A stretch of DNA of 55,829 bases from NCBI GenBank assembly GCA_039090665.1, contig JAWCSL010000004.1, forward strand, positions 1 through 55,829, in the 5' to 3' direction. Shown here piece by piece: positions 51,796-55,248 of this stretch. The notes beneath the pieces were generated by a model. It had not been told where the DNA came from. It saw only the letters and a program-made list of their open reading frames with translations, and searched no databases. The stretch's first letter is position 1, and the number at the start of each line of letters is the position of its first letter. Both the position numbers and the translations under genes were made by a program. The stretch is from Candidatus Aenigmatarchaeota archaeon. GTDB lineage: Archaea > Aenigmatarchaeota > Aenigmatarchaeia > CG10238-14 > SCSR01.

Positions 51796-52632
51796 TTAAA
51801 ATAAAACCAAACTCAAAATTCCTAAGAGCATAGGTATCGGCAAACCAGGCAAAGGAATTCTCTTCTTCCTGAGAAGATAAAGTGTGATTAAAATTCCCAA
51901 ATTGGTTGCAATCAAAGTGAAGATCATTTTCTCCAAGCCAAAGAGCATGAAAGCCACAGCTGGAAGCATTGAATAGAAGACGACATCACCAAGACCAATT
52001 TTTATGAAATCAAAGTCTAATATCAACAGAGAGAGAAAGTCTATCTTAGTCTTCAAACCTTTTTTTGTTCTTACAGGCTTACCTATGATTTTATTCAAAG
52101 GGCCTTTGAAAACTGCGTAAACATCATAAACAGAAAGCAAGAGTGGGAAAATGAAAACTGTTGGTGGTTGTAGAATGGTAGCAAAATAACCTGCTATTTC
52201 TGCTCCTATGAAAATTGAAAGGAAATTTGAAAGAAAGTGAAAGCTTTTGAAATATGCTACAAGAAAGACTAAAACAACAAGGAAGATTGAGATAAACCAA
52301 GGAAGAAGAACCGAATCTGGGAAAATTGTTGAGAAAAGAATTAAGTTGATTGAAAAAACCGAGCTTATCAGAAATCCTGTAACCAAAGCTTTGATTAAAT
52401 TGAATTTTCTCCACTTGACTAAAAAGGCCAAGAAGAACCCAAAGATGAAAATTGAGGTCAGGAGAGGTAAAGAATTTGCAATCGCCCCTTCTACACTTTT
52501 GCCAAAAGGTTCATAAACTTCTTCTGCCAAAGGGGAAGAATAGAAAACTCTTGTCACAAAGATGGCTAACAGTTGAGCGATTAAAGTAAAAGACAAGACT
52601 CTAAGAGATGCTAGCTTGAACTGCTTTTCCAT
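51796..52632 (-). CDS. presenilin/SPP-like GxGD intramembrane aspartyl protease
   Basis: YDVYAVF, GLGD, PGL (PAL-like). Confidence 0.9.
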   Translation of the reverse strand: MEKQFKLASLRVLSFTLIAQLLAIFVTRVFYSSPLAEEVYEPFGKSVEGAIANSLPLLTSIFIFGFFLAFLVKWRKFNLIKALVTGFLISSVFSINLILFSTIFPDSVLLPWFISIFLVVLVFLVAYFKSFHFLSNFLSIFIGAEIAGYFATILQPPTVFIFPLLLSVYDVYAVFKGPLNKIIGKPVRTKKGLKTKIDFLSLLILDFDFIKIGLGDVVFYSMLPAVAFMLFGLEKMIFTLIATNLGILITLYLLRKKRIPLPGLPIPMLLGILSLVLF

Positions 52633-52644
52633 ATAAATCCGGTT

Positions 52645-53004
52645 CTATTTCAAATTCTTCTCTGCTATTTCACCAGCTACCGGAAGCTTGAACCACTCAC
52701 CTTGATAAGCTTTTATCATGCAGACTATCCACACCACCACTGCAACCAAAGTGACAATACCTGAGAAGAAAAAGCCAATAAACGGAATTATTCCAAGAGC
52801 TATTGCAACCACGCTGAGTCCGATGAAAACGATTGTGGATTGTAAGGCATGGAATTTGACAAACTTACTGTCTTTTTCTAGCAGATAGAAGATAATTCCG
52901 GTGATCCATCCTAGCAGATAAGCTAGCAAAGCTTCTAAGTTTTCGTCCAAGCCCACAGATGTTTTCTTCTTAATTTCCTTTCTTTTTTCCTTTTTTCTTG
53001 GCAT
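52645..53004 (-). CDS. DUF4870 membrane protein
   Basis: ALLAYLLGWITG, FVKFHALQS, FKLPVAG. Confidence 0.9.
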   Translation of the reverse strand: MPRKKEKRKEIKKKTSVGLDENLEALLAYLLGWITGIIFYLLEKDSKFVKFHALQSTIVFIGLSVVAIALGIIPFIGFFFSGIVTLVAVVVWIVCMIKAYQGEWFKLPVAGEIAEKNLK

Positions 53005-53101: not shown

Positions 53102-53500
53102 ATGGGCTCTTTAGAAGTTGGCAGGGTAGTAATGAAAATTAGCGGAAGAGAGGCCGGAAAGTATGCTGTGGTAGTTAAAGGACCTGGAAAAGAAAAAGCT
53201 GAGAAAAATTTTGTGATTATAACCGGACCCAAGCTTTTGACTGGAGTTAAGAGAAGAAAGTGTAATATCAATCATTTGGAGCCTTTGCCTTATGTTCTTG
53301 AAATCAAAGAAGATGCAAGCGATGAAGAAGTTTTGGTTGCTTTTGAAAAGGCCAATTTGATAAAAAAGTTAGGGTTGAAAAAACCTTCTGCAGCTGAAAT
53401 TAAGGCTGAGAAAGCTAAAGAAGAGGAAAAGATGAAAGAAACCAATCTTGAGAAGAAAGAAGGAAAGAAAACTAAGAAAGAAAAGAAAAAACAGCAATAA
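53102..53500 (+). CDS. rpl14e: ribosomal protein eL14 with Lys/Glu-rich tail
   Basis: VGRVVMKISGREAGK, GVKRRKCNINHLEP. Confidence 0.95.
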   Translation: MGSLEVGRVVMKISGREAGKYAVVVKGPGKEKAEKNFVIITGPKLLTGVKRRKCNINHLEPLPYVLEIKEDASDEEVLVAFEKANLIKKLGLKKPSAAEIKAEKAKEEEKMKETNLEKKEGKKTKKEKKKQQ

Positions 53501-53632
53501 ATTGTTTTTGTTATTTTAAACCAATTTATCAGAACAAAAACTTGAGAGCAATGTTAAGTTCTTTTTTCCCAAAATTCAACAAGTCTTAAAGCTTAATAGG
53601 CCTAAATAAAAAATAAAGGGGGTGAGTTTTGA

Positions 53633-54607
53633 TTGTGGTTAGTAAAAAGTGAAGAAGAAACGAATGAAAAATATGGAAAAGCACCTGAAGCAAGAACAAT
53701 AGAAGAATTGATTAAAAGTTCGATAATAATTTGTGATAAGCATAGTGGTCCCACAGGAGCTTAAGCTCCGGGAAAATCACATCAAGTTACTGCTTGGGTG
53801 AAAGAAATTTTTGGTGTTAAGAAAGCAGGCCATGCTGGTACTTTAGATCCAGCTGTAACTGGTGTGCTGCCTGTAGCTCTAGAAAATGCAACAAAAGCCA
53901 TGCCCGTTTTAATGGGTTTAGAAAAAGAATATGTAGGAATAATGCATTTGCACAAAGAAGTTGATGAAAGCTTGCTAAGACAAACTGTTTTAGATTTTGT
54001 AGGGAAAATAGTTCAAGTTCCACCAGTGAAATCAGCAGTTGCAAGAAAACCTAGAATAAGAGAAATAAAGTTTTTTGATATTCTAGAAATTGAAGGTAAA
54101 GATGTTTTGTTTAAAGTCGGGTGTGAAGCAGGGACTTATGTAAGAAAGCTTGTGCATCAAGTGGGGGAAAAGCTTGGTGTTGGTGCCCACATGACAGAGC
54201 TAAGAAGAACAAGAGCAGGAAATTTCACAGAAGACCAAGCTCATCCTTTAGTTGAAATAAAAGATGCTTATGAATTTTGGAAAGAGGGAAATGAAAAGCT
54301 TTTGAGAGAGATTTTGATTCCTGTTGAATATGCAATTCTACATGTCAAAAAAGTTTTTGTTAAAGATTCTGCTATTGATTCAATTTGTCATGGTTCTCCT
54401 GTTTTTGTTTCTGGATTGAGCAGAATTCAAGAAGGTATAGTTAGGGGTGAAACTGTTGCTGTTTACAGTTTGAAGAACGAACTTGTTGCTTTAGGAATAG
54501 CCAAAATGGATAGCAAGGAAATGTATGAAAAAAAGAAGGGTTTGGCTATAAGAACGGATAGAGTTTTTATGGAGATTGGAACATATCCTTCAAGGAGAAG
54601 TGATTAG
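53633..54607 (+). CDS. cbf5: H/ACA pseudouridine synthase Cbf5, two exons (53633-53754, 53776-54607)
   Basis: TTG start after GGTGAG; exon 1 MWLVKSEEET..ICDKHSGPT joins SHQVTAW..GHAGTLDP..GTYVR..PUA. Confidence 0.93.
53755..53775 (+). other. 21-nt bulge-helix-bulge mRNA intron in cbf5
   Basis: GTGG-TCCC-AC^A-GGAGC-TTAA-GCTCC-GGGA-AA^A-TCAC; in-frame TAA inside; removal restores GPT-SHQV. Confidence 0.9.
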
Positions 54608-55248
54608 AAAATTATGTCTGTTAGTTTGATGTAAATTGTAACTAAAAGCTGCAACAATCTTGAAATTCTGAATTTTTTGCCATAGCCTCTAAAGAATTCT
54701 GTTTTTGCTTCTTCACTTTTTAAACTTGAAACAAAAGAAAGGACATCACAAAAAACCAAAAATTTTTTTGATCTTGAAGATTTCCTGAAAAGCTCTAGGT
54801 CTGTTCTTACTATATTGCCATCAAACATCCAGTTGCTTGACCTGTTATCTATGAAGTAAAAATTTTTATCGTTTAGCCTTCTTGTAATTTCTCCTATTTT
54901 TCTCACAATTTTCAAAACTTTTCTAGGGTTTTCAATCTCAAGATCATCTATTGTCAAAGCTTTTGCATCAAATTCCTCTTCCACAAATTTTTCTGAAAAA
55001 GAGAAGGATAAAATCCTTGTGGTCTTGATTCCCATTGAAGATAAAACTTTTCTTCCAAAAAGCTCGTTAGAAATTTTCCTTTTTGGTGAAATTGGCACTA
55101 TCAAGCGAAAGAAAAAAGTAGAAAAAGCAAGAAGGGCTAAATCGTGAAGAATATAGCCATAAACTGAAGGATAAAATTTAACAACTTTTCTTTTAATCAA
55201 CAAAATTTTCCTACTTGAAGCATGTCTAAACTTTTCTTCAGCTCTCAC
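54604..55248 (-). CDS. hypothetical protein, possible kinase-like fold
   Basis: VVKFY..FIDNRSSNW..TDLE. Confidence 0.6.
   Translation of the reverse strand: MRAEEKFRHASSRKILLIKRKVVKFYPSVYGYILHDLALLAFSTFFFRLIVPISPKRKISNELFGRKVLSSMGIKTTRILSFSFSEKFVEEEFDAKALTIDDLEIENPRKVLKIVRKIGEITRRLNDKNFYFIDNRSSNWMFDGNIVRTDLELFRKSSRSKKFLVFCDVLSFVSSLKSEEAKTEFFRGYGKKFRISRLLQLLVTIYIKLTDIIF

Follow-up and report, generated by a model that had tools for sequence, protein, structure and literature searches.

A probable bulge-helix-bulge intron in the cbf5 gene of an Aenigmatarchaeota archaeon, with related mini-introns in other DPANN genomes

How could an archaeon make Cbf5 from a cbf5 gene whose reading frame is closed by a stop codon inside the conserved GPTSH motif? 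The question is raised by a 55,829-nucleotide (nt) stretch of DNA from a Candidatus Aenigmatarchaeota archaeon (contig JAWCSL010000004.1; the whole stretch is here called the window), in which 21 nt at 53755-53775 interrupt cbf5. Judging from the DNA, we consider it very probable that these 21 nt constitute an archaeal bulge-helix-bulge (BHB) intron in the precursor messenger RNA (pre-mRNA) of cbf5. As far as we found, the intron belongs to a wider, apparently unreported set of BHB mini-introns in cbf5 genes of the DPANN superphylum, most of which lie at the site in the catalytic Asp codon that is known from Crenarchaeota. The host is a hot-spring archaeon, and the window is contig C10 of its genome (G000), which comprises 620,606 bases in 15 contigs, is 90.6% complete and has a G+C content of 34%. 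The closest named matches to its Cbf5 are annotated as Candidatus Aenigmatarchaeota archaeon (86-92% identity), and the NCBI taxonomy places Aenigmatarchaeota within the kingdom Nanobdellati, that is, DPANN.

The interruption in cbf5 and its predicted fold

In the mechanical list of open reading frames (ORFs), the large downstream frame begins at GTG 53798 (53798-54607), and Pfam recognizes in it the TruB_N (E value of 1.1e-26, from profile position 1), TruB_C_2 (2.5e-23) and PUA (4e-19) domains. Upstream of it lies an ORF (53633-53764) that starts with TTG 53633, 7 nt downstream of the Shine-Dalgarno-like GGTGAG, is closed by an in-frame TAA and matches the DKCLD domain (E value of 6.5e-11, positions 15-53 of the 58-position profile). 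With DKCLD, TruB and PUA all matched, the host gene is cbf5. A straight reading of the frame gives DKHSGPTGA, then a stop and then APGKSHQVTAWV. In contrast, in-silico excision of 53755-53775 yields a 954-nt frame of 317 codons plus a stop, the product of which is colinear over its whole length with the intact Cbf5 of genomes of the same genus. The gene spans 972 nt in the window versus 951 nt in the intact same-genus genomes; exon 1 aligns with residues 1-41 of the intact same-genus Cbf5, and the exon-2 protein is 83-92% identical to it. At the predicted spliced junction, the end of exon 1, ...GGTCCCAC, is joined to the start of exon 2, ATCACATC.

The insert and its flanks are predicted to fold into a complete BHB with a helix on either side (hBHBh'; Table 1), in which two 3-nt bulges on opposite strands are separated by a 4-bp helix and each bulge lies 3' of its own central-helix strand, as in precursor transfer RNA (pre-tRNA). 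The fold energy is -15.5 kcal/mol versus -8.05 +/- 2.27 kcal/mol for shuffled sequences (z of -3.28; 1 of 200 shuffles was equally good), and scripted scoring returned 4 of 4 central pairs, a 4-bp outer helix and a 5-bp inner helix. The intron ends were set by the BHB rule, according to which each bulge is cut between its second and third nucleotide (Yokobori et al. 2009); in silico, cuts at these bonds give an intact joined frame. A preliminary description of this DNA had proposed a BHB at 53745-53780, restoration of the cbf5 frame by removal of 53755-53775, an N-terminus lying upstream of the listed Cbf5 ORF and a DPANN host. The sequence and the minimum-free-energy fold, the 317-residue product colinear with intact orthologues, the DKCLD match and the taxonomy of the nearest named relatives bear out these proposals in turn.

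The mechanism that we propose is that the transcript would fold as hBHBh', in which exon bases would form the outer helix as well as the central helix on its 5' strand, and intron bases the remainder. EndA would then cut after the second base of each bulge, and RtcB would join the exons, which would re-form the divided Thr codon in the conserved GPTSH motif, so that a 317-residue Cbf5 could be made. Translation of an unspliced mRNA would end at the intron TAA after 43 codons, and active enzyme would therefore be made only from the spliced message. Any regulatory use of this splicing step is speculation.

Table 1. Features of the cbf5 locus in the window, genes of the predicted splicing enzymes and cbf5 introns in other genomes. 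Positions refer to the window unless a contig (C) is given; G, genome; L, locus.
Feature	Position	Strand	Remarks
GGTGAG, Shine-Dalgarno-like	53621..53626	+	Read from the sequence; putative function
cbf5 exon 1	53633..53754	+	40 codons plus AC of the Thr codon; DKCLD N-terminal region to ..DKHSGP(T)
Complete hBHBh' motif	53745..53780	+	Minimum-free-energy fold of 53735-53790 identical
Outer helix, 4 bp	53745-48/53777-80	+	Minimum-free-energy fold
Central helix, 4 bp	53749-52/53770-73	+	Minimum-free-energy fold
5' bulge ACA	53753-55	+	Minimum-free-energy fold
Predicted BHB intron, 21 nt	53755..53775	+	Phase 2 within the Thr codon; in-frame TAA 53762-53764
Inner hairpin	53756-69	+	5-bp helix 53756-60/53765-69, 4-nt loop
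3' bulge AAA	53774-76	+	Minimum-free-energy fold
cbf5 exon 2	53776..54607	+	Last base of the Thr codon, then SHQVTAW..., TruB catalytic domain, PUA domain; TAG 54605-54607
Catalytic Asp codon GAT within GTLDP	53846..53848	+	Uninterrupted in the window gene (read from the sequence)
EndA, 188 residues	C12:23808-24371	-	PF01974, 94.8 bits at C12:23832-24110; equals L001 1474-2040 and L159
RtcB	C14:31340-32644		PF01139, 547 bits; one copy
Site-A introns			G000, 21 nt; G074, 20 nt (other genus, same family); G318, 22 nt (Woesearchaeota record); G319, 20 nt
Site B, genomes of the order			11 genomes: G007, G030, G101-G105, G040, G074, G021, G083
Site B, another family of the phylum			G180
Site B, 12 further DPANN genomes			G318-G322, the genome of L132, G331, G339, G344, G387, G400, G424
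Site-B loci			L007, L012, L033-L037, L039, L040, L046, L050, L103, L114, L115, L125, L131, L132, L134, L143-L145, L155, L156, L158

Two intron sites in cbf5 of related archaea

Two intron positions were followed in the cbf5 genes of other archaea. Site A, the position in the window, lies after the second base of the Thr codon of GP(T/S)SH, and site B lies between the first and second base of the catalytic Asp codon of GTLDP. A query with the exon-2 protein found cbf5 in 58 of 60 relatives, and a query with an intact same-genus Cbf5 matched 107 of 117 genomes of the order. Within the first relative set, none of the 29 other loci examined as DNA carried an insert between GPT and SH. Where a genome was scored from its protein match, "no intron" denotes an unbroken, stop-free match row, which an in-frame, stop-free intron would escape; in the phylum sample, status was assigned among the matches listed, with 129 further match rows outside the count and five flagged loci examined as DNA.

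Site A was found occupied in four genomes, two of which (G318 and G319) are outside the phylum of G000. Such introns are rare, as they occurred in 1 of 22 cbf5 genes in the family of G318, in 1 of 77 in the sample of the family of G319 and in none of 73 readable metagenome loci. In the alignment of the four introns (A1), 94% of the cells were paired and 7 of 13 pairs had changed on both sides; the covariation score was 0.667 versus 0.226 for shuffles, none of 500 of which reached it, and at most 0.17 for controls in which the partner was slid by 1-3 columns, all of these statistics being drawn from four sequences only. The central helix occurs as UCCC/GGGA, CCCU/GGGG, GCCU/AGGC and UCCG/CGGA, and 4 of the 5 inner-helix pairs differ among the genomes. 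Changes of this kind are what would be expected of a structure under selection. Furthermore, the 20-nt introns of G074 and G319 are not multiples of three, and hence only removal at the bonds predicted by the BHB keeps the frame. In the helices, the exon strands are bound by the codons that they contain, and the corresponding exon bases of the intron-less same-genus genomes are not complementary, which indicates that exons and intron are co-adapted.

The history of the site-A introns was approached with a tree of Cbf5 from 42 genomes, from which the columns around both sites had been masked. In this tree, the sister of G074 is an intron-less genome from the same genus. The introns of G000 and G074 are alike in sequence; the signal for a transfer between the two is too weak to call, with 81% identity in one 90-nt window near the intron and 67-81% elsewhere. 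The distribution calls for numerous losses or, alternatively, for a small number of gains or transfers.

Site B is uninterrupted in the window gene, whereas mini-introns of 11-22 nt with a BHB occupy it in at least 24 DPANN genomes (Table 1), which include records titled Woesearchaeota or Nanoarchaeota besides Aenigmatarchaeota. Among the metagenome loci (within L191-L257), 13 of the 77 in which the site was readable carried one. The 3' bulge is AAA in nearly all of them, and most lack an inner helix, so that the 5' cut would fall in the loop beside the 4-bp helix. Many of the lengths are off-frame (11, 13, 14, 16, 17, 19, 20 or 22 nt); for most of these introns, whose length is not divisible by three, the frame is kept solely by excision at the predicted bonds. 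In an alignment of 21 of these sequences (A2), the central helix was 98.8% paired and two of its four pairs showed double changes, from C-G to U-A or G-C in six sequences and from U-A to C-G in five. On the Cbf5 tree the carriers are scattered, save for one genus in which all six genomes carry the intron.

Two of the site-B assignments were made by hand. The 13-nt intron of G074 was identified by eye, as its outer helix contains a bulged base and escaped the script filters, and for L114 a 12-nt solution was used instead of the scripted choice. Inspection by eye also removed false positives of the script, which fell at C-termini, runs of N and a plain TAG and had poor central or outer helices or a small gain in score (L029/L073, L133, L135, L137, L146, L147, L153, L154, L157, the second matches of L040/L066 and L158, and L260).

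Splicing enzymes and competing explanations

The genome encodes both EndA, the tRNA splicing endonuclease, and RtcB. The 188-residue EndA contains both Pfam domains, its residues 10-185 align with the homotetrameric (alpha4) enzyme of M. jannaschii (1a79), and the Tyr and His of the catalytic triad are aligned. No second EndA homologue was detected in G000, at 90.6% completeness, either by hidden Markov models at E values of up to 10 or with a query of the long-type paralogue. Elsewhere in the order, a longer EndA-like ORF (246-409 residues) with the canonical Arg-Lys is found in G036, G039, G041, G042, G044 and G047 (L183, L185-L188). This long EndA replaces the 188-residue type, or coexists with it in G036, and the EndA architecture therefore varies within the order.

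ARAGORN predicted 23 tRNA genes in G000, 10 of them with introns, some of which are doubtful. In several of these introns, a 4-bp helix is combined with a 3' bulge cut as AA^A, and among them are mini-introns of 11 and 12 nt that are built like the site-B introns. Since introns of the same design sit in the tRNA genes of the same genome, the splicing machinery appears to be in use. Examples of the tRNA genes are at C9:6247-6334 (-), C4:13014-13108 (-), C12:7759-7871 (-) and C11:20207-20321 (+), and the mini-introns lack an inner helix. Many further tRNA genes of G000 are probably disrupted in ways that ARAGORN misses.

Several observations weigh against an intron. Strict BHB-like patterns are frequent by chance in a genome of 34% G+C: we counted 1053 matches on both strands of G000, a rate of roughly 2e-5 per given start-and-length pair, and because of this abundance the motif alone is not significant. 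What lies above chance is the exact placement of this BHB, whose excision restores a conserved protein, together with its covariation in other genomes. None of the five same-genus genomes that have cbf5 (G002, G004, G005, G006 and G007) carries the insert, and in the Cbf5 tree G000 falls within a group of intron-less genomes of its genus; this patchy distribution implies that the insert is young or mobile, and conceivably a recent lesion. In a comparison with G002, the nearest intron-less orthologue, the ratio of nonsynonymous to synonymous substitution rates (dN/dS) was 0.33 for exon 1 and 0.06 for exon 2, that is, the constraint on exon 1 is the weaker. None of the 13 sequencing runs listed is an RNA run, so that splicing is inferred from DNA. 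Finally, in the single EndA detected, Ala takes the place of the canonical catalytic Lys (which we take to be Lys156 in M. jannaschii; the offset was verified on the alignment), and the activity of this enzyme is assumed. All 24 aligned EndA orthologues from relatives in the order (including L160-L182) share ..NIR(A/T).. at this position, whereas R/K-K is kept in five other DPANN EndAs and in the longer paralogues of some relatives. Like the EndA of G000, the same 24 orthologues have a conserved 6-residue, Lys-bearing insert, L-x-R/K-G-P-K, between the Tyr and the His, which in G000 may act as the Crenarchaea-specific loop does or replace the missing Lys (cf. Kaneta et al.).

Could the 21 bp instead be a recent insertion that inactivated cbf5, with the BHB-like fold being incidental? 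The lack of the insert throughout the genus and the abundance of similar patterns in the genome would both fit such a pseudogene. Moreover, DPANN genomes readily lose genes. Nevertheless, the 317 codons contain no other lesion and the overall dN/dS versus G002 is 0.09, the introns in the same codon of three other genomes covary and keep the BHB, Cbf5 was found in all 34 genomes with a completeness of 90% or more in the order, and the identical insert is present in DNA contigs of three studies, from runs dated 2017 to 2023. We therefore regard a pseudogene as unlikely. Those contigs also speak to an artefact of assembly or binning, in which the 21 nt would not belong to the DNA of the organism. 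In one of four DNA runs (X7), a contig does break inside the palindromic hairpin, at 53759/53760; however, contigs assembled independently with another pipeline from three runs of three studies (X5 record 1, X6 record 9 and X9 record 20, compared over 53400-54700) cross 53755-53775 with no gaps and 0-1 differences, and no variant without the 21 nt was listed among the contigs of the four runs. An artefact is thus close to inconceivable.

The two remaining explanations accept the insert and dispense with RNA splicing. Split protein genes are known from Nanoarchaeum, and as both ORFs of the window are open, cbf5 might encode a 43-residue N-terminal peptide and a 269-residue protein starting at GTG 53798 that assemble with each other. 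The second ORF, however, has no start codon before 53798 and would lose the conserved SHQVTAW, the break falls inside the invariant GPTSH motif, and the conservation of base pairing across four genomes would be left unexplained; we consider a split gene very unlikely. Translational recoding, in which the ribosome would read through the TAA or bypass the hairpin to give Cbf5 with or without seven extra residues, draws on the insert length, a multiple of three, and on the stable hairpin directly after the Thr codon. Yet read-through is inapplicable to the 20-nt inserts of G074 and G319 and to the many off-frame inserts at the Asp site, the insert is not flanked by a matching pair of take-off and landing codons (ACA versus AAA), and the seven added residues would fall within GPTSH, all of which makes recoding highly improbable. 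Collectively, these comparisons favor the BHB intron. The preliminary description had named a missing endA and an assembly artefact as grounds for rejecting an intron and compensatory changes in related cbf5 genes as a check on it; EndA and RtcB are both encoded, the insert is gap-free in contigs of three runs from three studies, and in the four genomes with a site-A intron 7 of 13 pairs have changed on both sides.

Relation to known introns and further observations

An intron in cbf5 has been described in Crenarchaeota, namely in Desulfurococcales and Sulfolobales, where it measures 16-44 bp and lies between the first and second letter of the catalytic Asp codon (Yokobori et al. 2009, PMC2738675, section 7; Watanabe 2002 and Yoshinari 2006 are cited there). 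Its motifs are mostly relaxed BHBs that are cut by a heterotetrameric (alpha-beta)2 endonuclease. The window intron resembles it in the host gene, in being a short BHB-type intron (21 nt), in the cleavage rule and predicted enzymes, and in that the unspliced message would yield no active enzyme. It differs in its host, which is a DPANN archaeon and not a member of Thermoproteota, in its position 24 codons upstream, in a Thr codon (the crenarchaeal position being taken from the text of that paper), and in combining a canonical hBHBh' with a single alpha4-like EndA, so that neither the Asp-codon position nor a relaxed BHB with a heterotetrameric EndA is a feature of the window intron. By comparison, the site-B mini-introns of its DPANN relatives sit at exactly the crenarchaeal bond. 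The preliminary description had held that crenarchaeal cbf5 introns are known at this motif, which is wrong as to the position.

The position in the Thr codon of GPTSH is new and has not been described before. In the 2009 paper, the forward primers for the polymerase chain reaction lie on an intact GPTSHEV, and the cbf5 of Nanoarchaeum equitans is given as intron-less (PMC2738675). The accessible parts of two papers in Nucleic Acids Research, of 2018 and 2025, cite only three papers of the Watanabe group for pre-mRNA. No published report of cbf5 introns in DPANN archaea was found in the literature searched, which largely excluded subscription journals, in agreement with the novelty for DPANN that the preliminary description had suggested; likewise, among the matches listed for the Aenigmarchaeota literature, no title or abstract pointed to mRNA introns.

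Other systems share parts of the design. As in canonical pre-tRNA introns, the window motif has two 3-nt bulges, a 4-bp helix and flanking helices, and the tRNA introns of the same genome share its 3' bulge cut, AA^A; in contrast to them, the host is an mRNA without a mature tRNA body, and the exon strands within the helices are subject to the demands of coding. Eukaryotic HAC1 and XBP1 mRNAs undergo an unconventional splicing in which Ire1 cuts and RtcB or Trl1 ligates. They are alike in that a protein enzyme removes a short intron without a spliceosome, a tRNA ligase joins the exons and an active protein depends on splicing; the endonuclease and the RNA motif are others, and the analogy is one of logic only. 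Closer in kind is the BHB in the mRNA of HVO_1309 of Haloferax volcanii, as given in a 2023 review (PMC10485636), which is likewise an mRNA processed by the tRNA splicing endonuclease outside Crenarchaeota, in a different gene and phylum.

With this locus and its relatives, what is known of cbf5 introns extends to a second superphylum and to a second site in the gene. Since DPANN and Crenarchaeota share the exact position in the Asp codon, the question of why it is cbf5 that is interrupted becomes testable as inheritance, transfer or a hot spot of exon self-complementarity. Tentatively, and with more doubt than confidence, we suggest that BHB introns across Archaea target cbf5 recurrently and under selection, with the Asp-codon bond shared by DPANN and Crenarchaeota and GPTSH as a second site in DPANN. 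In this scenario, the introns would belong to a single family, either ancient or spreading laterally, that arose from similarly designed tRNA mini-introns, and they would be kept because splicing by EndA and RtcB gates the synthesis of a pseudouridine synthase; in Aenigmatarchaeota, the EndA would be of alpha4 type, without the canonical Lys but with an acquired, Lys-containing loop of 6 residues at the place of the Crenarchaea-specific loop. If this were true, the splicing gate would couple RNA-processing capacity to the modification of rRNA and tRNA. A canonical mRNA BHB, tRNA mini-introns of 11-12 nt and an EndA without the textbook Lys also make a compact system for studying EndA specificity. 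For annotation, gene callers truncate or split Cbf5 in such genomes, as the ORF list of the window does by beginning at 53798, and the scoring of DPANN genomes by marker genes may be affected.

The preliminary description had also proposed a scan of the genome for BHBs in other split genes. Seventeen of the 1053 strict motifs open a long frame solely upon their removal, and among them cbf5 is the sole clean, G+C-rich case. Two other candidates within the window are ordinary gene boundaries. A further 14 outside it (e.g., C8:20482-20537 (+), C8:51909-51936 (+) and C8:14025-14068 (-)) are all A+T-rich and possibly chance occurrences at gene boundaries. We also considered the intron as a repeated element and rejected this, as the exact hairpin occurs in the genome only at cbf5, and seven other places, each of them matched on both strands, resemble it with two mismatches and have unrelated flanks. 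At gathering thresholds, Rfam matched two tRNAs in the whole window and nothing at the intron.

Next to cbf5, the ORFs upstream at 53102-53500 (+) and downstream at 54604-55248 have no Pfam match. Farther upstream, the ORFs at 51796-52632 (-) and 52645-53004 (-) encode a presenilin-family membrane protein (Pfam E value of 4.8e-16) and a DUF4870 protein. Two other kinds of interruption were encountered in cbf5 genes of relatives. At L029/L073 (G045:C21, around locus position 1903), the conserved Glu of GAHM(E)LRRT is replaced by an ordinary in-frame TAG that no BHB surrounds, which could be a sequencing error, a pseudogene or recoding. In five genomes (L046, at about G021:C6 10307-12856; G414:C87; G417:C55; G369:C47; and G399:C26), cbf5 is one open frame of about 780-850 residues, in which the match to Cbf5 stops near residue 160-167 and restarts about 1.5 kb later; this interruption looks like a candidate intein.

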